A stretch of DNA of 64,000 bases, taken from NCBI GenBank assembly GCA_963847195.1, contig CAWJZC010000009.1:17812-81811 (forward strand). The letters are read 5' to 3'. Positions 7,957 to 50,395 of this stretch are shown in pieces. Under the pieces are notes generated by a model that was given only the letters and a program-made list of their open reading frames with translations, was not told the origin of the DNA and did not search any database. Position 1 is the first letter of the stretch. The number at the start of each line of letters is the position of its first letter. The stretch comes from an uncultured Chloroflexia bacterium (GTDB lineage: Bacteria; Chloroflexota; Chloroflexia; Thermomicrobiales; JALYUS01). Made by a program: the position numbers and the translations under genes.

Positions 7957-8089
7957 GCCGCGCTGCTCCCGCCGTTGCCTTCCCCGCACGCAGGCAATAC
8001 TACGCGCCGCCGCGCCGTGTCAATCGCTCCGGCAGGGTCACGTAGAGGCAAGCGGGGTGCGTACCTCCACCGATTGATCCACCCGCTTC

Positions 8090-8956
8090 TCAATACTGAC
8101 GGCGCGGCGGGCGGGGGGTGATGACGGAGGGGTAGCCGGTCTGCCGCTTGCGGTAATCGCCGGCGGGGATATGAATGTGCCGCACCATGCGGACATCGGC
8201 GAGGCGAGAGGCGATGCGGTCGTCCACGCCGGGGAAGTCGATACCCAGTTTCTGGTCGGGCCGGATGTTATTGCTCGTCACGATGAGCGGGAGGCGCTGC
8301 ATCGCGCGGTAATTGATGATCTGGAAGAGCTTCTCGCGCGCCCATGGCGTCGTGTTCTCGGTGCCGAGGTCGTCCAGCACGAGCACGCCGACCTCGCGGA
8401 TCTGATTGAAGCGATCATCGAACGAGACGCCGCTCTTCGGGTCATAGGCGGAGCGCAATTGGTCGAGCAGATCGGGGACGACGGCGAAGAGCACGGTCAT
8501 CTGCTGGCGGACGGCCTCATTGGCGATCGCGGCGGCGAGATGCGTCTTGCCCGTGCCGTAACCGCCGAAGAGGACGATCCAGATCGGCTCATACGTCTCG
8601 CTGTACTGCTTCGCCTGGATAAACGCCTCGCGCGTGCCGGGTACGTCCTTATCGAAGGTGGCGAAGGTGCTGTCCACGAAGTGATCGAGATTGGAGAGCG
8701 CGCGCTGGTCGCTGTAGCGCGAGGCCGCCCGCTCCCGCTCCTGACACTGGCAGGGCACCGTCCGCCCGAACTGCGGATGGCCGACCGGCACATCGAGCCG
8801 CAGGAAGCCCGCTCCCCCGCAGATCGCGCAGACATCGCCCTCGCCACGATCCCGCCGGTTGACCGGAATCTCCACCTCGCCCGCCTCGCTGCCCACCCGT
8901 TCCTCGACATACGCCGCCAACCGCGAACCGCGAATGACATCCTTAATGCTCTGCAT
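8090..8956 (-). CDS. DnaC/DnaI-family helicase-loader AAA+ ATPase with N-terminal Cys-rich (zinc-ribbon-like) region
   Basis: 288-aa intact ORF. It has CAICGGAGF...PCQC, Walker A (GGYGTGKTHLAAAIANEA), Walker B (VLVLDDLG) and a sensor region (LIVTSN). It lies directly downstream of dnaB, and no IstA-like transposase is nearby. Confidence 0.8.
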   Translation of the reverse strand: MQSIKDVIRGSRLAAYVEERVGSEAGEVEIPVNRRDRGEGDVCAICGGAGFLRLDVPVGHPQFGRTVPCQCQERERAASRYSDQRALSNLDHFVDSTFATFDKDVPGTREAFIQAKQYSETYEPIWIVLFGGYGTGKTHLAAAIANEAVRQQMTVLFAVVPDLLDQLRSAYDPKSGVSFDDRFNQIREVGVLVLDDLGTENTTPWAREKLFQIINYRAMQRLPLIVTSNNIRPDQKLGIDFPGVDDRIASRLADVRMVRHIHIPAGDYRKRQTGYPSVITPRPPRRQY

Positions 8957-8970
8957 ACACCCCTCCGGGG

Positions 8971-9046
8971 AGTAACGAGTAGCGAGTAGCGAGTAACGAG
9001 AAGATGCTGGCGCCCTTCGTTACTCGCTACTCGCTGCTCGTTACTC
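8971..9046. repeat. inverted tandem-heptamer hairpin (AGTAACG/AGTAGCG units) between dnaB and the loader gene
   Basis: Left arm AGTAACGAGTAGCGAGTAGCGAGTAACGAG, spacer, right arm CGTTACTCGCTACTCGCTGCTCGTTACTC. The right arm overlaps the dnaB stop codon. Confidence 0.85.
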
Positions 9047-10391
9047 ACATGGGCTCACGATAGACTTCAAGGTCGGCGAAGCGGGTCAGGGCCTGGAAGA
9101 AGCGGAGGTTGACGACGCCCATCGGGCCGTTGCGGTGCTTGGCGATGTGGATTTCCGCGATGCCCTTCTTCTCCGTCTCGGGGTCGTACAACTCCTCGCG
9201 GTAGATGAACATGACGATGTCCGCGTCCTGCTCGATGGAGCCGGATTCGCGCAGGTCGGAGAGCACCGGCACCTTCTCGGCGCGCGATTCGACGGCGCGG
9301 GAGAGCTGCGAGAGCGCGACGACCGGGACGTTCAACTCGCGGGCCAGTTCCTTGAGCGAGCGCGTGATCTCCGCCACTTCCTGCACGCGGTTGTCGGTGC
9401 GGCCGCCGCGCATCAGTTGCAGGTAATCGACGATAATCATGTCCACGCCGAACTCCGCCTGCAAGCGGCGCGCCTTGGAGCGCAGTTCGACGACGCTGAT
9501 CGCGGGGGTATCGTCGATAAAGATCGGCGCGCTGGCGAGGTTGCCTAGCGAGCGGGAGATGGCGGGCCACTCGTCGTCGTCGACATAGCCAAGGCGCAGC
9601 CGCTGCGAATCGACGCCGGTATCCATCGACAAGAGGCGCTGGACGAGCTGCTCGCCGCTCATTTCGAGCGAGAACACGCCGACATGCTTGCCGTAGCGGA
9701 GCGCGGCATTGAAGGCCATCGTCATGCTGAGCGAGCTCTTGCCGACGCCGGGACGGGCCGCGATGATGATGAGGTCCGACTGCTGCAAGCCGCCCGTCAT
9801 CTTATCGAGGTCCGCGAAGCCCGTCGGCACACCGGCGAGTTCGCCGCGATGCTGCTGGACGAAGTCGATCCGCTCGAAGAAGGCGTCGAGGTAGTGCGAG
9901 ATCGGCTTGAAATCCCGCTCCAAGCGATCCTGCGCGACATCGAAGATCAACTTCTCGCTCTTGTCGAGCGCGTCGACCAGTTCGAGGTCGTCGTTGTAGG
10001 CGATGCTGACGATGCTCGACCCGGCGTCGATCAGGCGGCGGCGCGTCGCCTCGCGCTTGACGATCTCCGCGTAATACTCGACGTGCGCGGCGGTCGGCAC
10101 GATGCTGAGCAGGGTGGTCAGGTAGGCGATGCCGCCGACATCATCGAGGCGACCCCGGCGCTGCAATTCGTCCGGCAGGGTGGTGAGGTCGGCGGGCTCG
10201 CGCTTGTCGTAGAGATCGACGATGGCGGCGTAGATTTCCCGGTGCGCGCCGCGATAGAAATCCTCCGGGTGGAGGTTGGGGCGCACGCGGACAATCGCCT
10301 CGCGGTCGATGAGGAGGGAACCGAGGACGGATTGCTCCGCCTCGCCATTGTTCGGTGGTAATCGGTCGAGAACCCGCTCTTGTAGCGCCAT
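9045..10391 (-). CDS. dnaB: replicative DNA helicase DnaB
   Basis: 448-aa intact ORF. N-terminal domain (PPNNGEAEQSVLGSLLID), Walker A (IIIAARPGVGKSSLSM), Walker B (MIIVDYLQLM), and SRAVESR...LSDLRESGSIEQDADIVMFIYRE. Confidence 0.97.
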   Translation of the reverse strand: MALQERVLDRLPPNNGEAEQSVLGSLLIDREAIVRVRPNLHPEDFYRGAHREIYAAIVDLYDKREPADLTTLPDELQRRGRLDDVGGIAYLTTLLSIVPTAAHVEYYAEIVKREATRRRLIDAGSSIVSIAYNDDLELVDALDKSEKLIFDVAQDRLERDFKPISHYLDAFFERIDFVQQHRGELAGVPTGFADLDKMTGGLQQSDLIIIAARPGVGKSSLSMTMAFNAALRYGKHVGVFSLEMSGEQLVQRLLSMDTGVDSQRLRLGYVDDDEWPAISRSLGNLASAPIFIDDTPAISVVELRSKARRLQAEFGVDMIIVDYLQLMRGGRTDNRVQEVAEITRSLKELARELNVPVVALSQLSRAVESRAEKVPVLSDLRESGSIEQDADIVMFIYREELYDPETEKKGIAEIHIAKHRNGPMGVVNLRFFQALTRFADLEVYREPM

Positions 10392-10408
10392 CCGTCGCTT
10401 CGCTCCTT

Positions 10409-10530
10409 CAGGACTGAGCGATGAGGACTGAGGACTGAGGTTCAGCCGTCAATACTCTCGCCACCCACTGAGGAACGAAGCGACGCGGGACTGACCTCAC
10501 TCAGTCCTCAGTCCTCAGTCCTCAGTCCTC
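10409..10530. repeat. inverted tandem-heptamer hairpin (GGACTGA units) between rplI and dnaB
   Basis: Left arm CAGGACTGAGCGATGAGGACTGAGGACTGAGG (10409..10440). Right arm CTCACTCAGTCCTCAGTCCTCAGTCCTCAGTCCTC (10496..10530), about 55 nt apart. The right arm supplies the last codons and stop of rplI. Confidence 0.85.
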
Positions 10531-11055
10531 GCTCGGCGGTTCCGGCTGATCGGGCTGCGCGTCTTCCGGCGCGCTGGCTTCCGGGCTTGCCGCCGTTTCG
10601 CCGCCCTCACCCGTGACGATGACCGTCACTTCCGGGATGAGCCGACCGACGAGACGAACGGGGACCTTGTGCTCCCCGATGCTGCGGATCGGCTCATCGA
10701 GGGCGATCTTGCGCCGGTCAACCTCCTCGCCCACCACGCGGGAGAGCTGGTCCGCGATCTCCTGCGCCGTGATCGAACCGAAGAGCCGCCCGCTCTCGCC
10801 CACCCGCGCCGTGAAGGTGAGCGTCGTCGCGGCGATCCGGTCGCCGAGCGAGCGCAGTTCCTCTTCCTGCTTGCGGATGCGCTTGTCGGCCGCCGCCTGC
10901 CGCTCCTGCACCTGCTTGATCGTGCCGGGCGTGGCGATCTCCGCCAGCTTCTTCGGCAACAGGTAGTTGCGGGCGAACCCCTCTTTGACCGTCTGCACCG
11001 TCCCCGCCATCCCCAGATGCTCGACATCCTGGGTGAGAATCACTTTCGTCGCCAT
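10522..11055 (-). CDS. rplI: 50S ribosomal protein L9
   Basis: MATKVILTQDVEHLGMAGTVQTVKEGFARNYLLPKKLA... is a typical L9 N-domain. It is followed by the long helix, the C-domain and an acidic tail. The upstream 41 codons of ORF 10522..11178 look non-coding. Confidence 0.95.
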   Translation of the reverse strand: MATKVILTQDVEHLGMAGTVQTVKEGFARNYLLPKKLAEIATPGTIKQVQERQAAADKRIRKQEEELRSLGDRIAATTLTFTARVGESGRLFGSITAQEIADQLSRVVGEEVDRRKIALDEPIRSIGEHKVPVRLVGRLIPEVTVIVTGEGGETAASPEASAPEDAQPDQPEPPSED

Positions 11056-11230
11056 TGCGCGCTTACTCCTCGATGACCGTGTACCACAGCAAAGTAGCGG
11101 CACCAACGCCGCCACAGCGACGGTCAGTATACGTGCCGACGAGCAATCCGCGCAAGGGACTGTGTACGGACAGTACATCTGTGCGAGAACAATGTCAAGA
11201 GGGCTCGTACGTACTTTGCAGAAGCCGGGG

Positions 11231-11284
11231 GCCGGTAGCGAGGAGCCGGGGCGGCATGAGGGCTGCGAACTTCTCGCTACCGGC
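11231..11284. repeat. 12-bp perfect inverted repeat GCCGGTAGCGAG / CTCGCTACCGGC in the rplI-ndh divergent region
   Basis: Read directly. The loop is 30 nt and the arms carry the TAGCGAG motif of the heptamer family. Confidence 0.7.
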
Positions 11285-11376
11285 TACTCGATGCAGGATG
11301 GGACGAGAAGGAGGATGATAGGAACGGAAGATGCGACAACGGCGTTGCGTCAAGAACACCGAGAGGAGGTCACGTC

Positions 11377-12705
11377 ATGGTACGCAATCACGCACCCACC
11401 GCAACGCGAGATGAGGCCCAGGCGATACGCGCCACTGCCGCGCCGCATGTCGTCATTGTCGGGGGCGGCTTCGGCGGTCTGGCGGCGGCGAAGGCGCTGA
11501 GGGACGCGCCGGTGCGCGTGACGCTCGTGGACCGCGTGAACCATCACCTCTTCCAACCGCTCCTCTATCAGGTGGCGACCGCCGCCCTCTCGCCCGCCGA
11601 CATCGCCGCCCCGATCCGCTCGATCCTGCGCAATCAGCGAAACACGACGGTGCTGCTCGGCGAGGTGATCGCTATCGACCTCGCGCACCGCGCCGTCATC
11701 CTCACGCCGAACCCCGAGACGGGCGAGACTGCCGACGATCGTCTCTCCTACGATTATCTGATCCTCGCGCCGGGCACGGTGACGACCTATTTCGGCCATC
11801 ACGAGTGGGAGAAGGACGCGCCCGGCCTGAAAAGCCTGGACGACGCGATCGAGGTGCGCCGCCGCGTCTTCCTCGCCTTCGAGGCGGCGGAGCGCGAGCG
11901 GCGCCCGGAGACGCGGCAACGTCTGCTCACTTTTGTGGTTGTCGGCGGCGGGCCGACGGGTGTGGAACTGGCGGGAGCGCTCGCGGAGATCGCGCACGAG
12001 GCGCTCGAACGGGAATTTCGCGCCATCAATCCGGACGACGCGACGATCTACCTGATCGACGCCGGCTCGCGCATCCTCGCCACCTTCCCCGAGGACCTTG
12101 CCGGCGCGGCGGCAGCCTCCCTCGAACGCCTCGGCGTCCGCCTCCGCCTCCACGCGGCGGTGACGCAGGTAGACCGCGACGCCGTGCATCTCGGCGACGA
12201 GCGCATCGCCGCCGAGACGGTGATCTGGGCGGCGGGTGTCACCGCGTCGCGCCTCGGGGCATCGCTCGGCGTCCCGCTGGAGAAAGGCGGGCGCGTGCCG
12301 GTCGAGCCGGATCTGACGCTCAAGGACCACCGAGAAGTGTACGTGATCGGCGACCTCGCCGCATTGAATGACCGTTCCGGTCAACCGCTGCCCGGCCTCG
12401 CGCCCGTCGCGACGCAGGAGGGCGAGACGGCGGCGAAGAATATCACCCGCACCCTGCGCGGCACGCCGACGATACCGTTCCACTATCGCGACCGGGGGAA
12501 CATCGCCACCATCGGCCGGAATCGCGCCGTCGCGGTCGTCTACGGGATCAAGACACGCGGCTTCATCGCCTGGGCGATATGGGTCTTCATCCACATTCTG
12601 ACCCTGATCGGCTACCGCAACCGCTTCGCTGTGATGGTGCAATGGACGTACGCCTACTTCACCCACCGCCGCCCCGCCCGCTTGATTCGGGCGGAAAAAC
12701 GCTAA
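11377..12705 (+). CDS. ndh: type II NADH:quinone oxidoreductase (NDH-2)
   Basis: 442-aa intact ORF with two dinucleotide-binding motifs (VVIVGGGFGGLAAAKAL; VVVGGGPTGVELAGAL), VYVIGDLAAL, and a C-terminal hydrophobic segment (FIAWAIWVFIHILTLIGY). Confidence 0.9.
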   Translation: MVRNHAPTATRDEAQAIRATAAPHVVIVGGGFGGLAAAKALRDAPVRVTLVDRVNHHLFQPLLYQVATAALSPADIAAPIRSILRNQRNTTVLLGEVIAIDLAHRAVILTPNPETGETADDRLSYDYLILAPGTVTTYFGHHEWEKDAPGLKSLDDAIEVRRRVFLAFEAAERERRPETRQRLLTFVVVGGGPTGVELAGALAEIAHEALEREFRAINPDDATIYLIDAGSRILATFPEDLAGAAAASLERLGVRLRLHAAVTQVDRDAVHLGDERIAAETVIWAAGVTASRLGASLGVPLEKGGRVPVEPDLTLKDHREVYVIGDLAALNDRSGQPLPGLAPVATQEGETAAKNITRTLRGTPTIPFHYRDRGNIATIGRNRAVAVVYGIKTRGFIAWAIWVFIHILTLIGYRNRFAVMVQWTYAYFTHRRPARLIRAEKR

Positions 12706-12799
12706 CCATAGAGACACGGAGAACACAGAGAAGAGACTAGGAGCCGACTATTTTTCTTCTCGCTTCCGTATTTCTTTGCGTTCTCTGTGTCTCTGTGGT
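12706..12799. repeat. long imperfect hairpin with purine-rich (CACAGAG/GGAGAAC) and pyrimidine-rich arms between convergent ndh and parB; possible bidirectional terminator
   Basis: CCATAGAGACACGGAGAACACAGAGAAGAG ... CTTCTCGC...GCGTTCTCTGTGTCTCTGTGG. Same design as 23578, 42086 and 53152. Confidence 0.7.
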
Positions 12800-12813
12800 T
12801 CAGTAGTATCACC

Positions 12814-13665
12814 TTACCGTGTCAGGCGACCGACGATGGCGTTGAGGCTGTCATCGTCGGAGACGTGTAGGGTGAGTTGGTAGCCGCGACGCATTTTCTT
12901 CACCTGCACGCGGGAGATCTGCGCGCCGAGAGAGGCGCCGATGCGGCCCTGCACCGCCTCGATCTCCGGCGGCGCGGGCGCGGGCTCCGGCGACCGCTCA
13001 TCCCACGTGCGGACGAGCGCCTCGGTCTGGCGCACATTGAGGCCGCGTTCCGTGACCGATTCGAGCGCGGCGACCTGCTCGGTGTGATCGGTGATGCCGA
13101 GCAGGGCGCGGGCGTGCCCCTCGGAGACCCTGCCCGCCGCGAGCGCTTCCTGCACGGCGGTCGCGGCGCCGAGCAGGCGGATGCCGTTCGCGACCGTCGT
13201 GCGGTTCTTGCCGACGCGCTGCGCGACCTGCTCCTGCGTCATGCCGAACTCGCCGACGAGCGTGCGGTAGGCGTAGGCCTCTTCGAGAGGGTTGAGGTCG
13301 GCGCGCTGGATATTCTCGACCAGCGCCAGTTCGAGCATCTGCTGCGGGGTGGCGTCCTTGACGACGACGGGCACCTGCCGCAATCCGGCGCGGCGGGCCG
13401 CCTGCCAGCGCCGCTCCCCGGCGATGATCCGGTACGGCGTGGTATCCGTCGCGTCGGCGCGGGCGACGAGCAGGGGCTGGATGATGCCGTGGGCGGCAAT
13501 CGAATCGGCGAGGGCGGCGATCTCGTCTTCGACAAAGATCGTGCGGGGCTGGTAGGGGTTCGGCGCAATGGCGTCGATATCGACCTCGATGCCGCCGCCA
13601 CCGAGCGCGCCTTCCGGCATCAGCGCCCCGAGGCCGCGGCCCAGTCCCCCCCGTTTTGCGCCCAT
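12814..13665 (-). CDS. parB: ParB/Spo0J-family partition protein (no parA adjacent)
   Basis: MGAKRGGLGRGLGALMP N-terminus, ParB box (IIAGERRWQAARRAGL), HTH (MTQEQVAQRVGKNRTTVANGIRLL). Start taken at 13665 within ORF 12814..13743. Confidence 0.9.
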   Translation of the reverse strand: MGAKRGGLGRGLGALMPEGALGGGGIEVDIDAIAPNPYQPRTIFVEDEIAALADSIAAHGIIQPLLVARADATDTTPYRIIAGERRWQAARRAGLRQVPVVVKDATPQQMLELALVENIQRADLNPLEEAYAYRTLVGEFGMTQEQVAQRVGKNRTTVANGIRLLGAATAVQEALAAGRVSEGHARALLGITDHTEQVAALESVTERGLNVRQTEALVRTWDERSPEPAPAPPEIEAVQGRIGASLGAQISRVQVKKMRRGYQLTLHVSDDDSLNAIVGRLTR

Positions 13666-18715: not shown

Positions 18716-18851
18716 ACGCATCCCCGGCAATAGCCCGGCGGGCGCGGGCGGTGTGCCCGCCTTCATCGAGTATCGGACACCGCAGCAATGAGCAACGAGC
18801 AATGAGCGATGAGGCGGCGGAATCGAGGTTCAGACCCGCGATCGACCTGTT

Positions 18852-20958
18852 TTGAACTCCGAACTCCGAACCGTGCTCTGGCTGCTCGCCGCCGCGCTGA
18901 TCGCCGCTGTCTTGCTCTCGGCGGCATATCAGGCGCGGCCCACGTATCGGATCGCGGTCGGCGACGCGGCGCAGGACACGCGCGCTCGTGCGAGGCTTCT
19001 ATGGGCCGGAACGACAAGCGGCGGCGGATGGCGGCGTGCGCTATCGCTGGGCGCGCGGGAACGCGCGGATCGTCTTCCCCGGCATCGGGCGGGGCGCGCT
19101 GCACCTCGAACTCGTCATGTCCAGCGCGCTCAACCCGTCGCGCACCGTCCGCGTGCTGGCGAACGGCGGCGAGGTCGGGCAGGTGGAGTTGACACCCGCC
19201 TTCGCGCCGTACCCGATCGATGTGCCCGCCTCCTTCATGCGGAGCGGTTCGCTGGTCGTCACGCTCGACGCGCAACCGTACACGCCGCCGGGCGAGCAGC
19301 GGGCGCTCGGTGTCGCGGTCGCGGCGATCACCGTCCGGCCCATGGGGCACGGCCTCGCGCTGCCACCCGTGCGGATCATGCTTTCGCTCTGGGTCGGCGC
19401 GCTCTGCGTCGCGCTCGCGCTCTGGATCGCGGGGTTGGGCGGCCTCGGCGCCTGCACCGGCGCAACCATGGTCGCGGTCGCGATGGCCTGCTTCCTGATC
19501 GGCAACCGCCTCTTTCTCACGACGGACGCGGGCGGCGTTGTCCGCGCCGGGGCGCTGATGATCGTCGCGACAGCGGCGATTCGTTTCGGCTTCGCGCCCC
19601 TCTGCCGCCGCCTCGGGCTGGCGATGACGGCGCGGGATGTTCGCTGGCTCGCCGTGATTGCCGGGGCGACGCTCGCCCTCCGCTTCGCGGGCGTGCTGCA
19701 TCCGAGCATCGTCATCGTCGATCTCAAATTCCATCTGCACCGCCTCGCGGACGTGGCGGACAGACACACGCTGCTCCTGCCGATCCAATCGGCGGAATTC
19801 GGCGGGCGCACGGTGCTCTACGCGCCGACGCCCTATCTCTTCATGCTGCCCTTCTCCTGGCTGATCCGCGACCGGACGCTGCTGCTCTTCCTCTTCTCGC
19901 TCGGCGTCGACCTCGCCCGCTTCTGCGTCCTCTGGCTGGTGGCGCGGCGTGCGACGCGGGACATCCTGACGGCGAACCTCGTCGCCCTGACGATGGCGCT
20001 GATGCCCGTCGGTTGGATCGTCTATTCGTGGGGAACGTTCGCCAACATCTTCGCGGAGGGGATGCTGACGCTCCTCTTCGCCCTGCTGGCCCTCGCCTAT
20101 GGGCGGCTCGGCGGGCCACACGGCTGGCGGTGGTGCGCCATCTTCGCCGCCGCGATCAGTCTGACCCTGCTCGCGCATATCGGCGTCTTCGTGTTGACGT
20201 CGTTGACGGTTACCCTCTACCTGCTGGGTCGGGTAGCGCTGCTCGCCGTCTCGCGTCGGCAGCCATCCACCGGGTTGCACCACGAACGGCGCGCTGCATC
20301 GCTCTTCGCACTGGCCGGGTTGATCGCTGCGCTGGTCGCCTTCGCGCTCTTCTATCGCTTCCCCGCGCACGACCTCATCGCGGGCCAGCAGGCGACCGCC
20401 GTCGATCAGGAAACGACGAACACCCAGCCAACAGCGCAAACCCAGCAGTACCGCACCGGCGGCGCGACCCCGGACGACCGTATCGGCCTGCCCGCCATCT
20501 CGACATCGCACCTCAGCGTCGCGCTCGCGCGGGAGGCGTGGGAGCAATCCTTCGCCTTCTACCGCGTCTGGCCGGTGATCGCCGCCATCGCCGGGGCGGT
20601 GGTGCTCTGGGGCGGCATGAGGGCCGAGGACTCAGGGCTGAAGAGTGAGGGGGAAGCGTCAGACTCAGTTCTCATGCCGCCCAGAGGGCGCCTGCAGTCC
20701 TCGGCCCTTACCCTCGCGGTATGGATGGTGGTTGCGGCGACGATGCTCGTAGTGGGGATCGTGGCGCGGCTCTATGTGCGCTATCCGCTTTTCGCGCTGC
20801 CGGCCGTCGCGCTCGGGAGCGGTGTCGCACTCGCCCGGCTCATGCGGCGGGCGTGGTGGGGGCGTTATGCCGCCGCGGTACTCCTCGCCTTCTCCGCCAT
20901 CACGACGCTGCTGATGTGGTACGACCGCATCGTCTACGCCTTCAAACCGCTGGTGTAA
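18852..20958 (+). CDS. large polytopic membrane protein, paralogue of 13845..16062; one frame break
   Basis: ORF 18852.. gives MNSELRTVLWLLAAALIAAVLLSAAYQARPTYRIAVGDAAQDT. After a shift near 18982, ORF 18988..20958 continues LVRGFYGPERQAAADGGVRYRWARGNARIVFPGIGR...YTPPGEQRALGVAV and the multi-TM body. A conserved loop motif is VDLKFHLHRL (paralogue: SDLLFHVHRF). Confidence 0.75.
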
Positions 20959-23577: not shown

Positions 23578-23670
23578 AACCACCAAGACGCAAAGAACAC
23601 CAAGAGAGAAGATTTCGTTCTTCGCTCTCTCTTTCGTGTCCTTTGTGTCCTTTGCGTCTTTGCGTTGCGG
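23578..23670. repeat. long purine-arm/pyrimidine-arm hairpin (ACCAAGACGCAAAGAACACCAAGAGAGAAG ... CTTCGCTCTCTCTTTCGTGTCCTTTGTGTCCTTTGCGTCTTTGCG)
   Basis: Read directly. It lies between the Ldh_2 gene end and the SelA-like gene start, and reads as KDAKDTKDTKE / LCVLCVF in spurious ORFs. Confidence 0.75.
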
Positions 23671-23686
23671 TTCAACCTGTTCCGTC

Positions 23687-24817: not shown

Positions 24818-24866
24818 TACCGCAGGCTTTCCAGCCTGCGAGAGAGGCAGGCTGGAAAGCCTGCGG
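24818..24866. repeat. perfect 21-bp hairpin ACCGCAGGCTTTCCAGCCTGC-GAGAGAG-GCAGGCTGGAAAGCCTGCGGT
   Basis: Arms checked base by base. It is related to the 34519..34572 hairpin (GCAGGCTGAAGCC core, GAGAG loop). Confidence 0.9.
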
Positions 24867-24885
24867 TATCGATTTGATCCCTCTC

Positions 24886-24935
24886 CGAAGCATCGCACCG
24901 GCCGATTGTCATTGCAATCGGCCGGTGCGATGCTT
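24886..24935. repeat. perfect 22-bp hairpin GAAGCATCGCACCGGCCGATTG-TCATTG-CAATCGGCCGGTGCGATGCTTC
   Basis: Arms checked base by base. It lies 20 nt after the previous hairpin. Confidence 0.9.
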
Positions 24936-25099
24936 CCCGGGAGAACGTCCGACAAACACACCGGGGAGTGCCATTGTCCATGTATTTGCTCGGTAGGCAG
25001 CGCTACTGTCCCGGCGAGGGCAAGCAAACGACACCTCTTACTACCGTAGCACTCGATCCTGATGCAGAATGGGGGCCTACCGGCTACGATACACGCCCA

Positions 25100-25186
25100 C
25101 GTCCCATCGCGACCACCTTGCCGGGTTTCGCAACCATGCTCACCGTGCTCGCCATCAACCTGATCGGCGATGGCCTACGGAAGTAA
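25100..25186 (+). pseudogene. remnant: last about 25 codons of an ABC (Dpp/Opp-type) permease gene
   Basis: ORF 24968..25186 ends ...LPGFATMLTVLAINLIGDGLRK*. This is the characteristic C-terminal helix/tail of DppC/OppC-type permeases. Nothing upstream in that frame resembles the rest of a permease. Confidence 0.5.
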
Positions 25187-25199
25187 CGGCGGATTGGCC

Positions 25200-27764: not shown

Positions 27765-27991
27765 TTGAGATTACCCTAAGTGCTTCGTGAAGGTTTGTCA
27801 AGCAAACGAACAGCGCCCCACTCCGTTAAATGGAGGTTCGCAGGGCACAGGCTGAAGTCTGCGTGCCCGTGCCCCGTCTCGACACCATCACTTTTTCCTC
27901 ACCCACGCGCACGAGTCACGCGGGAGACGGAAAAAATGATCCATGCGAGCGTGGAGAGGACGGAAGCCTTGGGGACAGTCTTGAGAGGATG

Positions 27992-29873: not shown

Positions 29874-29935
29874 AGTAACGAGTAGCGAGTAACGACACGG
29901 GACCACGAGTCCCTCGCTACTCGCTCCTCGTTGCT
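29874..29935. repeat. inverted tandem-heptamer hairpin (AGTAACG/AGTAGCG) between E2 and SDR genes
   Basis: AGTAACGAGTAGCGAGTAACG ... CTCGCTACTCGCTCCTCGTTGCT. The right arm abuts the E2 stop. Confidence 0.85.
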
Positions 29936-31239: not shown

Positions 31240-31300
31240 AGTAACGAGTAACGAGTAGCGAGGCGGGAGCGGAACCCCTCGTTACTCGTTACTCGTTACT
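31240..31300. repeat. inverted tandem-heptamer hairpin (AGTAACG) between E1beta and E2 genes
   Basis: AGTAACGAGTAACGAGTAGCGAG ... CTCGTTACTCGTTACTCGTTACT. Confidence 0.85.
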
Positions 31301-32280: not shown

Positions 32281-32296
32281 GATAACTCCTTCCGAA

Positions 32297-32387
32297 GGAC
32301 TGAGGACTGATGGCTGGGCGGAGACGGCGCAATGACAACTCAGCCCTCACCCCTCGGCCCTCAGTCCTCAGTCCTCAGTCCTCAGTC
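32297..32387. repeat. inverted tandem-heptamer hairpin (GGACTGA) between E1alpha and E1beta genes
   Basis: GGACTGAGGACTGA ... CTCAGCCCTCACCCCTCGGCCCTCAGTCCTCAGTCCTCAGTCCTCAGTC. The right arm overlaps the E1alpha stop. Confidence 0.85.
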
Positions 32388-33386
32388 ATCACTGAAGACG
32401 TGATCCGTCGCGGTCGCCGCATCGGGCCAGGGGCTGTTCTTGGCGAACTCCGTCGCTTCGGCGATCAGGTCCTGCACGTCGCGCGTCGATCTGGCCGATC
32501 TCTTCTTCGCTGGCGGTACCGTCCGCCGAGCAGGCGCTCGCGCAGCCGCGCGATCGGGTCGCGCCCGCGCCACTCGCTCGACCTCGTCCTGCGTGCGGTA
32601 GCCCACGTCGCGCATCCCCTCGGAGTGCGGCGCGCGTGCGATAGGTCTTGCATTCGAGCAGGGTCGGCCCGCCGCCGGAGCGCGCGCGGCTGATCGCCTC
32701 GCCCGCCGCCTGATAGATGCCGAGCACATCGTTGCCATCCAGCTCGATACCCGGCAAGCCGTACGCCGCCGCCTTCGACGCGACGCTCGGTGTTCTTCGT
32801 AATCGTCGCGAAGGGCACTTCGGTCGCGTACTGGTTGTTCTCGCAGACGAAGAGGACCGGCAAGTCCCAGACGGTGGCGAGATTCAGCCCCTCGTGGAAG
32901 GCGCCGTTACTGACCGCGCCATCGCCGAAGAAGGCGACGGCGACCTGATCCGATTTCTTCAGCATGTAGGTGTAGCCCGCGCCCGCCGCCATCAGGATGC
33001 TCGGCCCGACGATGCCGCTCGTGCCCAGCATGCCGACTTCCGGCTTGAAGAGGTGCATGCTGCCGCCGCGCCCATGCGAGCAGCCCGTCACCTTGCCGAG
33101 CAGTTCGGCGATCAACTCGCGCGGCGGCACGCCCTTGGCGAGCGCGTGGCCGTGGCCGCGATGCGTGCTCATCACCGTGTCGCTCTCGCGCAGGTGCGCG
33201 CAGACCGCCGTCGCGATCGCCTCCTCGCCCACGTAGGTGTGGCACGCGCCGGGGATGAACCCCGTCTGGTGCAGCCGCGCCAGTTGCTCCTCGCAGCGGC
33301 GAATTTCCAGCATCTGCCGGTAGAGACGCGAGCATCTCCTCTTTGCCGACCTGCGTCTGCGTCTCCTGTGCCGTCTCAACTGCCAT
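32382..33386 (-). pseudogene. 2-oxoacid (acetoin-type) dehydrogenase E1 component, alpha subunit (TPP-binding), about six frame breaks
   Basis: MAVETAQETQTQVGKEEML is in ORF 32907..33470. The core with [17 protein letters not shown]...VCENNQYA is in ORF 32465..33442. [21 protein letters not shown]...LLECKTYR is in the frame of ORF 32389..32757. The last about 300 nt then zig-zag between three frames: [17 protein letters not shown] / [16 protein letters not shown] / [15 protein letters not shown] / [19 protein letters not shown]...FSDD*. Junctions are near 33330, 32785, 32630, 32580, 32530 and 32485. Confidence 0.85.
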
Positions 33387-33537: not shown

Positions 33538-33545
33538 CCGGCGGG

Positions 33546-42056: not shown

Positions 42057-42085
42057 GCATCCCTCCCGTCTGACAAAACGACTGA

Positions 42086-42191
42086 ACCACAGAGACACAG
42101 AGAGCACAGAGAAACGCGGAGAAGAAGTGAAAAAGGGTTCTCTTGTATCTTCCTCTCGTCTCCTTCTCGCTTTCTCCTCTGTGTCTCTGTG
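42086..42191. repeat. long purine-arm/pyrimidine-arm hairpin (ACCACAGAGACACAGAGAGCACAGAGAAACGCGGAGAAG ... CTTCTCGCTTTCTCCTCTGTGTCTCTGTGG)
   Basis: Read directly. It lies in the divergent gap between the SDR and HAD genes. Confidence 0.8.
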
Positions 42192-42274
42192 GCTCAATCC
42201 CCCCTCAAGTCGCGCCATCATACGGGGGATGGCGCGGCTCTGCTATGCTGCGGGCCGAGAGAAAGGCAGGGGAC

Positions 42275-44758: not shown

Positions 44759-44812
44759 GTGCTGAGGACTGAGGGCTGAGGACGAAGGATTGAGTGGGAA
44801 AGGGTGGAGACA

Positions 44813-45745: not shown

Positions 45746-45896
45746 GGCTGGGCATCCCTACAGGAACTGAGGACTGAGCGGAGGGAACTGCACCATGGCT
45801 TGGAGAAATGAGATCGAGCCGAGACGGAGGGCCTCGGTCCTCACGCCGCCCGAAGGGCACCCGCAGTCCTCAGCCCTGCCCCGCGATACGAGCGGC

Positions 45897-46661
45897 GTGA
45901 AGGTGCTCTTCGTCGCGCTGCTCGTCCTGCTCGCGCTGAGCGGCGGCACCGCGCCCGTCCAGCCCGCGCGGGCGGCGGGTGCGGCCGGCATCGTCATCCG
46001 GCACAGCAACGGACGCCTCGTCTATGCCCTCGTCCCGCTGGCGGGCGACGGGATGACCGGCGCGGAGGCGTTGCAAAAGTCCGGGCTCGACCTCAATGTC
46101 AGCGTCGGCGGGTCGTTCGGGGTGGCGGTCTGCACAATCGACGGCGAGGGGTGCCAATCGCCGAAGGAGGATTGCTTTTGTAAATCCTACGGTGATCCCG
46201 CCCTGTACTGGCACTACTATCAGCGCAACGCCGACGGCTCGTGGCGCACATCGGCGCTCGGCGCGGGGAACCGCATCCTCCACGATGGCGACGTGGACGG
46301 CTGGTCGTGGACGGGCGGCGAGAGCAATCTGCCATCCGTGACGCTCCAACAAATCGCGGCGGCGGTGCAATCGACCGGCGCGACGCCGACACCGCCCGCC
46401 GCGCTCGCCATGACGGATGCGCCCGCGCCGACGGTCGCCGCATCCGTCCCGACGACACCAACGGAACCGCAGCCGCTCACCGCAATCGTTGCGCCGAATG
46501 GCGCCGCGACGCCGCTCGCACCCGCAACGAAGCCGCCCAACCCGGCGCGCGGTCGGGCGATTGGCGGCTTCGTTGCCGTCGCAGCGGTTATGCTTGCGCT
46601 CCTTGCGCTCGTCCCACTCGGTGCGCGACGACGCAATCGACGGCTGAGGGCTGAGGGCTGA
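45897..46661 (+). CDS. DUF4430-like (transcobalamin C-terminal beta-domain-like) protein with signal peptide and C-terminal membrane anchor
   Basis: In-frame GTG 45897/45903 starts the signal VKVLFVALLVLLALSGG. The earlier ATG 45795 lies inside a repeat. The core is GAEALQKSGLDLNV...GSFGVAVCTIDGEG...YWHYYQRNADGSWRTSALGAGNRILHDGDVDGWSW. A Pro/Thr/Ala linker and TM (GGFVAVAAVMLALLALVPLG) + RRRNRR follow. Confidence 0.6.
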   Translation: MKVLFVALLVLLALSGGTAPVQPARAAGAAGIVIRHSNGRLVYALVPLAGDGMTGAEALQKSGLDLNVSVGGSFGVAVCTIDGEGCQSPKEDCFCKSYGDPALYWHYYQRNADGSWRTSALGAGNRILHDGDVDGWSWTGGESNLPSVTLQQIAAAVQSTGATPTPPAALAMTDAPAPTVAASVPTTPTEPQPLTAIVAPNGAATPLAPATKPPNPARGRAIGGFVAVAAVMLALLALVPLGARRRNRRLRAEG

Positions 46662-46812
46662 GGCTGACGGCGAGGACTGAGAAGGTCACATGCGAACAGA
46701 TCGAGCGGGCGAGAAAGCGAGAGGCAGTGCGTTCGCGGGCCATTCCGAGGAGGTCATTCGCAAACCGCTCTCCCCGCCCTCCCTCAACTCTCAGCCCTCG
46801 GTTCTCAGCCCT
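46643..46812. repeat. inverted tandem-heptamer arrays (GCTGAGG / CCTCAGC type) flanking the annotated start of the EcfT gene
   Basis: Left GCTGAGGGCTGAGGGCTGAGGCTGACGGCGAGGACTGA (46643..46680). Right CTCAACTCTCAGCCCTCGGTTCTCAGCCCT (46783..46812). Single arms of the same unit are at 44761..44783, 45764..45777 and 45866..45880. Confidence 0.8.
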
Positions 46813-49462
46813 GTATCGTGGTTGGCATGGGCGAGCGCGTGTACGCTCGTCGTCGCAACGACGCGGAACCCGCTCTATGTGGCGCTCGTCGCGCTCTGCG
46901 CGGGGGCGGCGTATCGGGCCGCGCGCAACGATGGGATAGTGCGCGGCGCGGCCGAATGGTCATTCGTCCTGCGGGCGGCGTGGACGCTGACGACGGTCGC
47001 GATCCTCTTCAACACGCTCACCGTCCATGCCGGTGATCGCGCGCTCTTCGCGCTGCCGCGCGACCTGCCGCTGGTCGGGCGCGGTGATCGGCGGGCCGGT
47101 GACGCTCAATGCGCTGCTCTACGGCATCATCTCCGCCCTCGCGCTCGGCACGTTAATGCTCGTCTTCGCGGCGCTCAACGCGGCGGTGGGCTACGAGGAA
47201 TTGCTCCGTCTGCTGCCCGGCCCGCTCACCGGCCTCGGCGTGACGATGACCGTCGCGCTCGGCTTCCTGCCGCAAACGATTGCCGCATTCGGCGAGGTGC
47301 GCGAGGCGCAGGCGGTGCGCGGCCATACCGCCCGGCGCGGCGTGCGCGGCAGCCCTTTGGGCGGCATCCCGCCGCTCGTCGTGCCCGTGCTCGCCCTCGG
47401 CCTGGAACGGGCCATTGCGCTGGCGGAAGCGATGGCGGCGCGCGGCTTCGGCGTGCCGCGGGGCGATGGCCCGCGCGCCCGGCGCACCGCATACCGCGCC
47501 CGCCCGTGGCGGATACTGGATAGCGCAATCGTCGCGGGGGCCGGTGTGGTGGCAGCCGCTATCGTCATCGTCGCGCTCGGCGGCAGCGCGCTCATCTATT
47601 ATCCCTACCCGACTCTTCTCTGGCCGCCGTTTGATCCGCTGATCGGCGCGGCTCTCCTGCCGCTCCTGCTCCCGGCGGTGCTGCTGCCGTACGGAGAGGA
47701 GTATGGAGGGGGCGCGACCCCGCACAACGGTCAAGCACAATCCGAGGCGGCTTCTCCCCCCGTTTCCCCCTCCCTTCGAGGGAGGGGGTTAGGGGGTAGG
47801 AGCTCCCTCGCCCGACTCGACCGCGTGACCTATGCCTATCCTCGCGCATCCACCCCCGTACTTGATGCTATCTCATGGGATATGTTCGAGGGAGAGACGG
47901 TACTGCTCGTCGGCACATCCGGCGCGGGGAAATCGACGCTGCTGCGGGCCTTCAACGGGCTGGCACCACATTTTACCGGCGGGCGCTTCGGCGGCACGGT
48001 GACGGTCGCGGGGCTGGCGGCGCATCGCGCGGGGCCGCGCGGGATGAGCGGCGTGGTCGGGATGCTTTTCCAGGACCCGGAGGCCGCCGCGGTCGCGCCC
48101 CGCGTCGCGGATGATGTCGCCTTCGCCCTCGAACAGCACGGCATCCGCCGGCCGGAGATGCGGCGGCGGGTGCGAGATGCGCTCGATGCGGTCGGGGCGG
48201 CGCACCTCGCGGAGCGGGAGATCGCGACGCTCTCCGGCGGGGAGCGGCAGCGGGTCGCCCTCGCGGCGGCGATTGTCCGCGCGCCTCGCCTGCTCGCCCT
48301 CGACGAGCCGACCTCGCAACTCGACCCGGATGGAGCGCGCGCGATACTCGACGCGCTTGCGGCCGTGCAGGCCGCGTCCGGCATGGGCGTCGTCATCGCG
48401 GAGCATCGGTTGGAGCGGATCGCACCGCGCGCGACAGGCGCTTTGCTCCTGCCGGGCAATGGTACGCTGGTGCGCGGCGATCCGCGCGGCATCCTCGCGG
48501 CGGCGGGCGCGCGGTCGGCGGCGTGGCTGCCGCCGGTGGTCGCACTTGGGCAAGCGATGGGTTGGCTTCCCCTCCCCCTCTCGGTCGCGGAGGCTCGTCC
48601 GCTCGCGCTCCGCGATGGCCTGACCGCATTGGAGGCATCGGCGGCCCCTGCGTCGCATCCGGCCGGCGCGCCGCTGCTCACCGCATCAGGGCTCTCGGTC
48701 ACACTTGGCGGGCAGACGGCGCTGCGCGATATCGAACTGGCCCTGCACGCGGGCGAAATCGTCGCGGTGGTCGGCGTCAATGGCGCGGGCAAGACGACAC
48801 TGCTGCGGGCGCTTCTTGGCCTCCGCACGCCGGAGAGCGGCAGCGTCATGCTCATGGGGCGCGATGTGACGGCGGGCGGCGTCCGGGCGCGCGGCGGGCA
48901 GATCGGCTACGTCCCGCAGCAGCCGGGTGCGCTGCTCTTCGCCGAAACGGTGGCGGACGAACTCGCCTTCACGCTCAGGGCACGCGGGCGGAGCGATTAT
49001 CCCGCGCGCTATGGCGGCATGGAGGGTCTGCTCGTCGCGCTCCGACTCGGCGGGATGGCCGACCGCTATCCGCGCGACATCTCCGTCGGCGAGCGCGCGC
49101 GGGTCGCGCTCGCCGCGACGCTGGCGGGCGATCCGCCGCTCCTGCTGCTCGATGAACCGACGCGCGGCCTCGACCCCGAGGCGAAAGACGATCTGATCGC
49201 CGTCCTCCACGGCCTGCGCGATGCCGGTCGTGCCGTCCTGCTCGTCACGCACGATGGCGACCTCGTCGCCCGCGCCGCCGACCGGGTGATCCTGCTCGAC
49301 CGGGGGCGGATCGTCGCCATGGGCCACCCGCGCCAGGTGTTGCCGGGCACGCCCTTCGCGCCGCAGATCAGCCAGCTACTCGGCGGCGCCTTCCTGACTG
49401 TGCCGGACGTGCTGGCGGCGCTCCCGGCAGCCGTGCGGCCGGGGCGGGAGGTACACGCATGA
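46690..49462 (+). CDS. ECF transporter fusion: T component (CbiQ/EcfT) + two ATPase domains (EcfA-EcfA'); one frame break in the T part
   Basis: The T part starts in ORF 46690..47523 (WLAWASACTLVVATTRNPLYVALVAL...). After a shift near 47080 it continues in ORF 47027..49462 (GAVIGGPVTLNALLYGIISALALGTLML...ERAIALAEAMAARGF). Two ABC domains follow (GTSGAGKST / LSGGERQRVAL / LLALDEPTSQLD; GVNGAGKTT / ISVGERARVAL / LLLLDEPTRGLD). The true start is uncertain because the ATG lies within a repeat. Confidence 0.85.
47766..47800. repeat. GC-rich palindrome CCCCCTCCCT-TCG-AGGGAGGGGG + TTAGGGGGTAGG tail, in frame in the T-to-ATPase linker
   Basis: Read directly. It encodes ...SPPVSPSLRGRGLGGRS. Confidence 0.85.
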
Positions 49463-50395
49463 AGCGCTGGCGCACCACGCTGGTGCTCGCCGTCACCTCG
49501 CTAATCGGCGTGGCGGCCTTCCTCAGTCCCTTCTGGCTGGCGCGGACGCGGACCGTCGGGGCGGATCGCACCGCGCACGGCAGCGACGCGCCGCTGCTCT
49601 TCGCCCTCGTCGGCATGCTCTGCCTGATCGTGCTGCTCATCGAAACGGGCGGCGGGGCGGACCCGGACGCGAAGCGGGTGGCGCTGCTCGGCGTACTCGT
49701 CGCGGCGAACGCGGCGTTGCGGCTGATCCCCGGCATCTTCGGGGCGAGCCCGATCTTCTTCCTGCCGATCTGCGTCGGCTTCGTCTGGGGGCCGTCCTTC
49801 GGCTTCCTGCTCGGCGCGGCGAGCATTGCCGTCTCGGGGTTGCTCACCGGCGGCATCGGCCCGTGGCTCCCCTTCCAGATGATGACCCTCGGCTGGGTCG
49901 GACTGACGGCGGGAGTGGTGGGAGCCCCTAACCCCCCGGCCCCGCTTCCCTCGCGAAGGGAAGGGGGAGGCGGAAGATGGCTTGCGCCATCTTCCCGCAC
50001 TCAGCACTCAGTCACTTAGCACTCAGCACTTCGTCCTTTTGGCGATCTTCGGCGCGGCGTGGGGCTTCCTGTTCGGGGCGATTATGAATCTCTGGTTCTG
50101 GCCGTTCGCGGCGCCCGCCTCGCCCGCCGAGAGCGGGCTCTACTGGGCGCCGGGGTTGGGGCTGGGGGAGACGGTGCGGCGGTATCTCGTCTTCTACGGG
50201 GCGACCTCCGCCGTCTACGACGCCTTCCGGGCGGCGGGGAACGTGGCGATGTTCGCCCTCTTCGGGCGGCCCGTGTTGCTGCTCCTGCTGCGCTTCCGGG
50301 ATCGGTTCACCTGGCAGCCAGTCGCGACGATACCGGCCCCGGAGGCGCAGGACGCACTTATATCGGATAGCCCTTCAGCCCCTGCATGCCCTTGA
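49459..50395 (+). CDS. ECF transporter S (substrate-capture) component-like membrane protein, interrupted by a repeat insert with a frame break
   Basis: The start overlaps the upstream stop (ATGA). ORF 49459..50019 holds 4 hydrophobic helices (...FGASPIFFLPICVGFVWGPSFGFLLGAASIAVSGLL...). ORF 49982..50395 in the neighbouring frame holds 2-3 more (FVLLAIFGAAWGFLFGAIMNLWFWPF...). The junction lies inside repeats at 49925..50035. Confidence 0.6.
49925..50035. repeat. composite repeat insert: CCCTAACCCCCCGG + CTTCCCT-CGCGA-AGGGAAG palindrome, GGAAGATGGC-TTGC-GCCATCTTCC hairpin, and a heptamer array CTCAGCA/CTCAGTC/CTTAGCA
   Basis: Read directly, inside the S-component gene. Confidence 0.8.

Follow-up and report, generated by a model that had tools for sequence, protein, structure and literature searches.

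Paired inverted heptanucleotide arrays with predicted hairpin folds turn over at gene junctions of an uncultured Chloroflexia bacterium and its relatives

The 64,000-nucleotide stretch of DNA analyzed here (the window; 67% G+C) comes from an uncultured Chloroflexia bacterium (GenBank assembly GCA_963847195.1, contig CAWJZC010000009.1, positions 17,812 to 81,811 of the forward strand), and several of its gene junctions carry two arrays of tandem 7-nt units, one array being the reverse complement of the other. The paired arrays share one anatomy, occur far more often than expected by chance, sit close behind stop codons, are predicted to fold into stable hairpins, have proliferated in the lineage of the window, and differ between orthologous junctions in unit sequence, in presence, and in the orientation of the spacer. 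We put at about one in two the probability that they are palindromic simple-sequence repeats (SSRs), i.e., paired inverted heptanucleotide simple-sequence arrays forming a hypervariable, dispensable, and co-transcribed intergenic class that resembles the repetitive extragenic palindromes (REPs) and has proliferated in the Thermomicrobiales-like lineage of the window.

An earlier note on this DNA, made from its letters alone, had described paired inverted arrays of tandem heptamers at gene junctions. A repeat scan, an inverted-repeat scan, shuffles, and fold predictions confirmed them at five junctions, as follows.

8970..9046, minus strand: AGTAACG/AGTAGCG hairpin, 4.3-4.4 units per arm, 17-nt loop, at the junction of dnaB and the dnaC/IstB-like loader gene; predicted -59.9 kcal/mol, z -9.3; on the mRNA, 5' arm 9046-9017 and 3' arm 8999-8970
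10410..10530, minus strand: GGACTGA hairpin, 4.4 units per arm, 60-nt loop, at the rplI-dnaB junction; predicted -74.6 kcal/mol, z -4.7
29874..29935, minus strand: AGTARCG hairpin, 3 units per arm, loop of about 19 nt, at the junction of E2 and the short-chain dehydrogenase gene; predicted -39.7 kcal/mol, z -5.0
31240..31300, minus strand: AGTAACG hairpin, 3.3 units per arm, 13-nt loop, at the E1beta-E2 junction; predicted -40.5 kcal/mol, z -6.4
32296..32391, minus strand: asymmetric GGACTGA hairpin (mRNA 5' arm of 7.6 units, some degenerate; 3' arm of 2.1 units) at the E1alpha-E1beta junction; predicted -62.1 kcal/mol, z -5.2

Tandem Repeats Finder returned period-7 arrays in the minus-strand operons at 8970-9000/9017-9046, 10410-10440/10500-10530, 29874-29895, 31240-31262/31278-31300, and 32296-32310/32339-32391, and further ones at 18784-18813, 44762-44794, 46642-46681, and 49997-50030. 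The inverted-repeat scan paired 8970-8999 with 9017-9046 (I3; 30 nt, 97% complementary, 17-nt loop), 10410-10439 with 10500-10529 (I4; 30 nt, 90%, 60-nt loop), 31240-31263 with 31277-31300 (I10; 24 nt, 96%, 13-nt loop), and 32296-32328 with 32343-32375 (I5/I9). Three-unit patterns were matched 8 times in the window for AGTARCG (up to 2 mismatches) and 11 times for GGACTGA (up to 3 mismatches), against 0.00 expected for either from 100 dinucleotide-preserving shuffles. The arrays had been proposed to form long RNA or DNA hairpins, and the stems predicted for the transcribed (minus) strand at the five sites turned out to be very stable, with energies of -39.7 to -74.6 kcal/mol and z between -4.7 and -9.3. 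Each element reads 5'-(unit)n, then 13-130 nt of loop that is not conserved, and then (reverse-complement unit)n-3'. In the 8970 hairpin even the order of the unit variants (AAC, AGC, AGC, AAC) is mirrored in both arms. Neither the three AGTARCG copies nor the two GGACTGA copies have related loops. Altogether, the window holds five to seven hairpin copies, all of them extragenic.

All five strong hairpins are intercistronic. According to Pfam, one minus-strand operon comprises rplI (10522-11178), dnaB (9045-10391), and the dnaC/IstB-like loader gene (8090-8956), and the other encodes 2-oxoacid dehydrogenase E1alpha, E1beta (31303-32280), E2 (29935-31218), and a short-chain dehydrogenase (SDR; 29014-29850). 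The 5' arm begins at the stop codon of the upstream gene or no more than about 15 nt from it. Arms had been said to overlap the stops of dnaB, rplI, and E1alpha, and these stops were indeed located at 9045-9047, 10522-10524, and 32382-32384; that of rplI lies inside the 5' arm of the 10410 hairpin, and the E1alpha reading frame closes at its TGA within the 32296 array. The E2 stop (29935-29937) stands at the foot of an arm of the 29874 hairpin, and the E1beta stop (31303-31305) is 2 nt outside an arm of the 31240 hairpin. Beyond the 3' arm of all five comes a Shine-Dalgarno (SD) sequence and then the next start codon, 13-23 nt from the arm, for instance GGAGGGG and ATG 8956 within 13 nt of the 3' arm at the 8970 hairpin, or AAGGAG and ATG 10391 at the 10410 hairpin. 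Among 59 hairpins found in high-G+C loci, 32 lie between co-directional, 8 between convergent, and 2 between divergent genes, and here too an arm typically begins within about 15 nt of the upstream stop. The flanking genes showed no common functional theme in Pfam.

A stop codon is found in each of AGTAACG, AGTAGCG, and GGACTGA and in none of their reverse complements, and in most copies it is the 5'-arm unit that carries the stop. Since 7 is not a multiple of 3, three such units close all three reading frames, and since the element is palindromic, the closure holds for ribosomes coming from either side, i.e., on both strands. Long G+C-containing stems directly after stop codons could also be intrinsic (Rho-independent) terminators, and some copies in other phyla have T-runs after the stem (e.g., locus L018). 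This explanation is highly improbable for the window: no U-tract or T-run follows any of its hairpins, which are therefore not intrinsic terminators, a terminator scan of 8000-13500 made no call at the hairpins there, and the five separate cistrons in operons whose co-expression is obvious (E1alpha-E1beta-E2 and rplI-dnaB-dnaC). No Rfam 15 family reached its gathering score at the hairpins, the sole match in the window being a cobalamin riboswitch at 44533-44668.

We then determined how specific the arrangement is for period 7. The census covered 596 kb ascertained by protein rather than by repeat, and counted arrays of at least 16 nt. It contained 71 arrays of period 7, 27 of them with a reverse-complement partner (reversed-sequence control: 1), as compared with 14 arrays of period 8 (4 with a partner), 10 of period 6 (1 with a partner), and 3 of period 5 (none with a partner); at this equal stringency, periods of 9 and above are not comparable, since 16 nt is less than two copies. 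Reverse-complement partners numbered 97 in the pooled loci, whereas reversed or complemented control sequences gave 4-5, so the supposition of the earlier note that the heptamers are enriched between genes and occur as inverted pairs beyond chance held up. Per 10 kb, the clade of the window has 2.2-3.4 arrays and distant relatives have 0.07-0.25, whereas the Sphaerobacter locus has none.

Polarity was also highly regular, as none of the 27 unit families was seen in both polarities. Among the 5'-arm units, AGT recurs in 12 of the 27 families and GAG in 10. When stop codons were counted by independent unit family, 10 families had them in the 5' arm only, 4 in the 3' arm only, 3 in both, and 10 in neither. 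A universal rule that the 5' arm bears the stop, which looks strong by copies, is therefore not established by families (10 versus 4), and both the richness of the 5' arm in purines and common descent of the units confound it. In sense orientation, the 5' arm was longer than the 3' arm in 12 cases and shorter in 5 (Wilcoxon P = 0.03, binomial P = 0.14; the loci are non-independent), which is a weak trend only.

Orthologous junctions were compared for two operons. A metagenome search with E1beta supplied relatives of the E1/E2 operon at identities between 90% and 44%, all in one orientation, and relatives of the rplI-dnaB operon (L199-L208) were contigs encoding DnaB homologues. The elements found at three junctions were as follows.

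E1alpha-E1beta, window: GGACTGA hairpin
E1alpha-E1beta, L119: AGTTCGG
E1alpha-E1beta, L120 and L121: AGTCGGT
E1alpha-E1beta, L122 and L124: AGTGCTG
E1alpha-E1beta, L123: AGTAACG
E1alpha-E1beta, L125 and L126: direct 14-mers
E1alpha-E1beta, L127-L130 and all more distant relatives: short junction, element absent
rplI-dnaB, window and L199: GGACTGA
rplI-dnaB, L200: AGTTCGG hairpin adjoining one leftover last GGACTGA unit
rplI-dnaB, L202: AGTGCTG
rplI-dnaB, L204: CGTGCTG
rplI-dnaB, L206: AGTGCCG/AGTACCG
rplI-dnaB, L203 and Sphaerobacter (L208): none
dnaB-dnaC, window: AGTARCG
dnaB-dnaC, L199: CAGTAGT
dnaB-dnaC, L202: GCTGAGG
dnaB-dnaC, L200: no element, the stop and start overlapping as TAGATG

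The E1beta-E2 and E2-SDR junctions showed the same pattern of unit replacement and of presence or absence as E1alpha-E1beta, and the DnaB operon independently replicated the turnover seen in the E1/E2 operon. It follows the same lines even between very close relatives: L122 and L124 are 98.6% identical in E1beta, yet their E1beta-E2 junctions carry entirely different elements. A single arm of L122 grades outward-in from AGTAGCG through AGTGACG to AGTGCTG and AGTGCTG. At a junction, the inverted-array architecture outlasts by far any one unit sequence. Two cases of inversion were found. In L120 and L121, which are 93% identical in E1beta, the 12-nt loops at the same junction are exact reverse complements of each other (ACGAACAGACAC in L120), and two L119 copies 1 kb apart are mutually inverted.

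From the comparative data and from published mechanisms we infer an origin by slippage and template switching. Replication slippage would change the number of units, and switching of the DNA polymerase between the arms as templates would keep them complementary, extend them, occasionally re-seed them, and invert the spacer, so that the unit sequence could drift or be replaced while the inverted-array architecture stayed at the junction. Template switching between the arms of inverted repeats has been described as leading to homogenization of the arms and inversion of the spacer (PMC5941160 and PMC8604942), and as able to create and maintain RNA hairpins without stepwise compensatory substitutions (PMC8794818, PMC5941160, and PMC8604942). 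The quasipalindromes of these studies have arm homogenization, arm extension, and spacer inversion in common with our elements, in which an exact inversion of the spacer is seen; they are ordinary short inverted repeats, whereas here the arms are tandem repeats and slippage is a second fast process. The window and its metagenomic relatives amount to a natural time series in which the same junctions are found with five units, empty, with direct arrays only, or with a flipped spacer, and in which one can watch directly how long RNA and DNA hairpins are born, evolve in concert, and are lost. They also offer a clean test of whether template switching or selection for compensatory changes maintains the stems.

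As to what the elements do, most likely it would be a REP-like effect at the RNA level. Co-transcribed in the operon mRNAs, they would fold to 20-35 bp stems without a U-tract and behave as REP-type stem-loops, acting either as a barrier to 3'-to-5' exonucleases, so that the upstream cistron is protected, or as a weak terminator attenuating read-through. The translation of neighboring cistrons would be kept separate, with ribosomes terminating at the foot of the stem. If the polarity with a stop-bearing 5' arm is selected, the element would be a simple, portable cistron-insulating device.

Several points weigh against this explanation. The effect on RNA is purely inferred, and the mismatches in the 8970 and 31240 hairpins put the G-U wobble on the antisense strand, which gives no signal of selection on RNA; the window hairpins contain just four informative mismatches, with no wobble preference for the sense strand, and so small a number is uninformative. 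The stop-codon rule is weak when counted by independent unit families. Close relatives lack the hairpin at the same junctions (L200 at dnaB-dnaC, L127-L130 at E1alpha-E1beta), so that any function must be dispensable. Finally, slippage and template switching alone explain neither the presence of one unit family at several loci (AGTARCG at three and GGACTGA at two to three in the window, AGTTCGG at three in L119) nor the recurrence of AGTARCG pairs in many phyla.

Some of these points would fit equally an origin without any role in RNA, in which a high rate of 7-nt slippage together with quasipalindrome correction fills non-coding space with neutral or selfish by-products of mutation, and in which an array seeded at a stop codon acquires its inverted copy only on the non-coding side, hence the polarity. 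We regard this as a serious rival, possible but falling short of an even chance. It is consistent with the dispensability of the elements, with a polymorphism in presence or absence and a full exchange of units at nucleotide divergences of 1-6% (e.g., L122 versus L124), with loops unconstrained in both sequence and orientation, and with an mRNA strand devoid of wobble asymmetry. On the other hand, relatives with as little as 75% DnaB identity still have a hairpin of some type at rplI-dnaB, one is retained throughout a clade at each of the three E1/E2 junctions, and the placement is tight against the upstream stop and not random in the intergenic space, as also in Xanthomonas (Rehm et al., PMC4692102). 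If the elements are neutral, they are a warning that conserved-looking intercistronic stem-loops and 7-residue linker repeats may be pure products of mutation.

Linker repeats of this kind were encountered in the relatives, whose coding sequence for the inter-domain linker of E2 holds heptamer arrays, always in the stop-free orientation; CAGTCGG, for example, is translated into the 7-residue repeats QSAVGSR-QSAVGSG. Such exclusive orientation suggests that slippage is a general process and that coding constraint filters its products, and the invasion of a coding linker in the stop-free orientation is again what neutral arrays would do. The units of the linker arrays are CAGTCGG, CAGCACT, and AGCAGGG, and the arrays are located in L121 (6357-6394), L165 (1135-1178 and 1211-1241), L119 (2933-2961), and L120 (5130-5173).

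Direct arrays lacking a partner at equivalent junctions (44762 and 46642 in the window, and the E2-SDR junction of L122-L124) likewise speak for neutrality. The sites in the window that the earlier note had listed in addition to the five strong pairs proved to be of this direct or poorly paired type: 45764/45866 was unconvincing, 46642/46783-46813 paired at long range only, and 44762, 49997, and 18784 were unpaired. The features concerned are the following.

44762..44794, plus strand: unpaired direct array of CTGAGGA x 4.7, between the terminator of the cobalamin riboswitch and the first gene of the downstream operon
45764..45786, plus strand: short direct array of GGAACTGAGGACTGAG, directly 5' of the SD sequence GGAGGG and ATG 45795
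46642..46681, plus strand: direct array of GCTGAGG/GGACTGA, containing the stop codon of the upstream open reading frame (ORF) (repeat scan)
46783..46813, plus strand: weaker CTCAGCC array complementary to that at 46642, inside the next ORF
49997..50030, plus strand: unpaired direct array of GCACTCA x 4.7, the stop-free orientation of AGTGCTG (repeat scan)
18784..18813, plus strand: direct array of AGCAATG x 4.3 (repeat scan)
18784..18871 region, plus strand: short degenerate inverted pair of the AGTTCGG type, ending in GAACTCC x 2.6 (18854-18871), 3' of the AGCAATG array

As hairpins, four of these sites were rejected: 44762 (z -0.4), 49997 (z -0.75), 18784 (no significant fold, z +0.4), and 45764/45866 (z -1.9, with 8 of 200 shuffles folding equally well and the right arm inside a coding sequence). 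For 46642/46813 the predicted energy was -90.7 kcal/mol at a z of only -2.8, and the SD sequence and ATG 46690 would fall in the loop. Every junction of the operon at 44804-50019 bears a forward heptamer array (44762, 45764, 46642, 49997). This operon, in which a CbiQ-like domain is encoded in fusion with two ABC ATPase domains, is preceded by the riboswitch at 44533-44668 (plus strand, 51.5 bits) with its terminator-like stem and T-run.

The forward arrays lying just 5' of start codons at 44762, 45764, and 46642, as such arrays do in Beggiatoaceae (PMC4679880), and the recurrence of AGT and GAG in the 5'-arm units raise the question of whether the arrays are sites where a protein binds in a 7-nt register, either on RNA (S1, Csp, or CsrA type, as proposed for the TAACTGA repeats), with post-transcriptional regulation as the outcome, or on DNA, with transcriptional regulation. 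We consider this very unlikely, as the unit sequence is freely replaced at orthologous junctions, the paired form would sequester the putative sites in a stem of predicted -40 to -75 kcal/mol, and the flanking genes share no functional theme.

Direct TAACTGA repeats have been described in marine Beggiatoaceae, cyanobacteria, and Bacteroidetes, and slippage under coding constraint was argued for them (MacGregor 2015, PMC4679880). In forward orientation they close all frames, may overlap a gene end by a few nucleotides, and lie directly 5' of starts, and within ORFs they occur only in the reverse, stop-free orientation; the relatives' E2-linker arrays and, in the window, the unpaired arrays at 44762, 45764, and 46642 behave alike. 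Unlike the elements studied here, they comprise one unit sequence, a single inverted pair among 170 sets, and no predicted structure (PMC4679880).

The closest precedent is that of Rehm et al. 2015 (PLoS One 10:e0144275, PMC4692102), who counted 70 and 75 close convergent pairs of GGGAATC arrays in two Xanthomonas genomes (X. campestris and X. axonopodis). These repeats are 89-93% intergenic, are closer to the upstream ORF's 3' end (28 nt on average) than to the following start, are mostly found between co-directional and seldom between divergent genes, vary in length and sequence between close species, and are transcribed (PMC4692102). They share with our hairpins the two close arrays of one heptamer on opposite strands, always convergent and with the potential to form stem-loops or cruciforms, as well as the fixed polarity, the intergenic location near the upstream 3' end, and the rarity between divergent genes. 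The unit differs: that of Xanthomonas is G-rich, was studied as a G-quadruplex former, and contains no stop codon, whereas AGTARCG, GGACTGA, and GCTGAGG are without G3 tracts, most units of the window type bear a stop, and the host belongs to the Chloroflexota. Unit replacement at orthologous junctions and spacer inversion, both seen here, were not reported for Xanthomonas (PMC4692102).

This precedent leaves unsupported, as worded, the statement of the earlier note that heptamer repeats are known as direct arrays, since paired convergent arrays had already been described, and its claim of a distinct REP-like class is only partly right: the elements are real, located at junctions, paired beyond chance, and predicted to fold stably, and it is their distinctness as a class that is not supported in this form. 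The architecture as such is not unprecedented, although the hairpin-forming pairing has so far received only a passing mention, for Xanthomonas. New features are the lineage of the host, the families of units, a 5' arm that bears a stop and sits on the upstream stop codon, the cross-phylum AGTARCG pairs of one polarity, the unit replacement at orthologous junctions, and the exact inversion of the spacer. A full-text literature search for the repeat strings themselves found nothing, one for tandem heptamers with hairpins between genes gave no match, and one for short tandemly repeated repetitive (STRR) sequences with a hairpin gave unrelated papers only.

Heptanucleotide SSRs are, according to Mrazek et al. 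2007 as summarized in PMC4679880 and PMC4692102, the most over-represented long SSRs in prokaryotes, enriched in intergenic regions and attributed to slippage. Our elements resemble these and the cyanobacterial STRR sequences in their head-to-tail 7-nt units, in being longer than expected by chance, and in their mainly non-coding location. The cyanobacterial and other long SSRs are, however, described as direct arrays, with only "a few" pairs in Nostoc, whereas here about 40% of the arrays have an inverted partner. Nor is the host cyanobacterial, as the nearest named relatives of its DnaB are those of Sphaerobacter, Nitrolancea, and Thermomicrobiales (66-68% identity; unnamed metagenomic homologues reach 93%). 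The unit sequences differ as well from those of STRR1-3, which Mazel and colleagues reportedly gave in 1990 as CCCCAGT, TTGGTCA, and CAACAGT.

REP, BIME, and REPIN sequences are extragenic and often intercistronic multi-copy palindromes that are co-transcribed and form stable stem-loops without a U-tract, and each REP family has a conserved, non-periodic sequence and is tied to a gene for a REP-associated tyrosine transposase (RAYT). In Escherichia coli, REPs are said to shield upstream mRNA from 3' exonucleases and, when near the stop codon, to disturb termination, as Newbury and colleagues in 1987 and Liang, Rudd, and Deutscher in 2015 reportedly found. Our elements are likewise intercistronic palindromes with predicted stable stems and no U-tract, but their arms are tandem heptamers of variable number and sequence and their loops are unrelated. 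Given the lack of a conserved family sequence, the unrelated loops, and the lack of a RAYT among the 50 ORFs scanned, they are not REPs in the strict sense; the lack of a conserved core and of a target-site duplication means that they are not MITEs (miniature inverted-repeat transposable elements) either.

We also looked at how widely the AGTARCG unit is spread. A scan for three AGTARCG units in one genome per GTDB species yielded at least 118 stretches, and the matches listed are taxonomically very broad. An inverted partner was present within 200 nt in at least 41 loci, and among the matches listed AGTARCG formed the 5' arm in 43 of 44 pairs with up to 2 mismatches and in 25 of 25 with up to 1 mismatch, reversed-sequence controls giving 1-3. 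Paired loci spanned at least nine phyla or classes, their hosts among the matches listed being metagenome-assembled genomes (MAGs) of Chloroflexia/Thermomicrobiales, Mesorhizobium, Nitratireductor, Aminobacter, Xanthobacteraceae, a Chromatiaceae MAG, Opitutae/Verrucomicrobiia, Gemmatimonadota, Acidobacteriota, Chthonomonadaceae, Planctomycetota, and Nitrospirota. In the low-G+C Bacteroidota and the cyanobacteria among the matches listed, the arrays were direct only. Outside Chloroflexota (Mesorhizobium loti, L080 5340-5490; also L011, L035, L042, L068, L021, and L115), the arms of AGTAGCG pairs can be strongly asymmetric, with, for example, 4 degenerate units facing 15 perfect ones, the two arms may use differing variants (AATAGCG versus CGCTACT), and the loops reach about 180 nt.

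One conceivable, though improbable, extension of this pattern is that the inverted arrays of the AGTAGCG and NNNGAGT types constitute a single dispersed family of invariant polarity, shared by Chloroflexota, Alphaproteobacteria (Mesorhizobium), Gammaproteobacteria (Chromatiaceae), Verrucomicrobiota, Gemmatimonadota, Acidobacteriota, Armatimonadota, Planctomycetota, and Nitrospirota. Such a family could be an evolved bidirectional module for cistron insulation, combining stops in three frames with a long RNA stem, or else the footprint of a GTAG-specific enzyme acting on single-stranded DNA, of RAYT-like type, that spreads and re-seeds the arrays.

The occurrence of one unit family at several loci of a genome and the AGTARCG pairs of fixed polarity in many phyla would be best accounted for by mobilization in trans, i.e., by the hairpins being non-autonomous REPIN- or MITE-like mobile elements whose heptamer arms are binding sites for a trans-acting transposase such as a RAYT-like HUH enzyme recognizing GTAG. 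We hold this to be doubtful. AGTAGCG does contain GTAG, but GGACTGA, AGTTCGG, and AGTGCTG do not. The L119 copies lying 1 kb apart have common arms and a common loop in opposite orientation, and in L200 a new AGTTCGG hairpin stands beside the remnant of a GGACTGA arm; against this, the loops of copies of one family in the window are unrelated, which leaves a mobile element of the REP or MITE type undemonstrated, no target-site duplication was found when filled and empty junctions were compared, and units vary continuously in number and sequence, as in the graded L122 arm. The search for a cognate RAYT that the earlier note had suggested returned no RAYT, other transposase, or Y1/HUH domain among the 50 window ORFs scanned against Pfam, a search of one 64-kb window that would miss a single-copy gene elsewhere.

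A further point in favor of mobility is a REPIN-like doublet beginning GGTAGCG, found at the same E1beta-E2 junction in L120 and L122 and also present in the window. It represents a separate and genuinely REPIN-like family of the same genomes. The doublet consists of two inverted copies of GGT(A/G)(G/C)CG(C/T)AGGCT(TC/TTCC)AGCCTGCG, each a small hairpin with a GTAG-like 5' start. Doublets are located in the window at 24818-24868 and 34519-34572, with a different palindrome at 24887-24936, and in the relatives at 2556, 4775-4837, and 8126-8161 of L120 and 5990-6032 of L122. At E1beta-E2 of L120 and L122, this non-periodic doublet replaces the heptamer hairpin.

Beyond the heptamers, the window contains two hairpins of the same architecture that the earlier note had not listed.

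12700..12805: hairpin of roughly 8-nt units (CACAGAGA / TCTCTGTG), flanked by the NDH-2 and parB genes in convergent orientation; predicted -52.9 kcal/mol, z -8.2
42075..42203: second hairpin of the CACAGAGA type, with 46-nt arms (I2), in a divergent intergenic region; predicted -70.7 kcal/mol, z -6.7

They belong to a second family with periodic arms, of about 8-10 nt units, which has a purine-rich 5' arm without stop codons and is also found at 23600-23680. Similar CACAGAG arrays lie 3' of E1beta in L157 and L133, relatives with 73-77% E1beta identity.

Some ORFs of the window were irregular. At least four frame changes are needed to align its E1alpha (32382-33442) with the intact L122 orthologue, and the ORFs at 38997-40448, 54526-55092, and 150-1751 encode partial Pfam domains or two unrelated domains fused. 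These may be indel errors of the assembly or pseudogenes of the strain; since the architecture of the hairpins recurs in dozens of independent assemblies, possible indel errors leave the finding intact. Two more G+C-rich intergenic palindromes were noted at 33407-33541 and 36390-36425 (CCCCTTCCCGAAACGGGAAGGGG ... CCCCTTCCCTGCGTGGGAAGGGG; CCCCCTCTCCATCGCCGGCCGGCAATGGAGAGGGGG), and a 189-nt tandem repeat (2.7 copies, 78% matches) occupies 26655-27162, within an 869-aa ORF (25170-27779) that had no match in Pfam.

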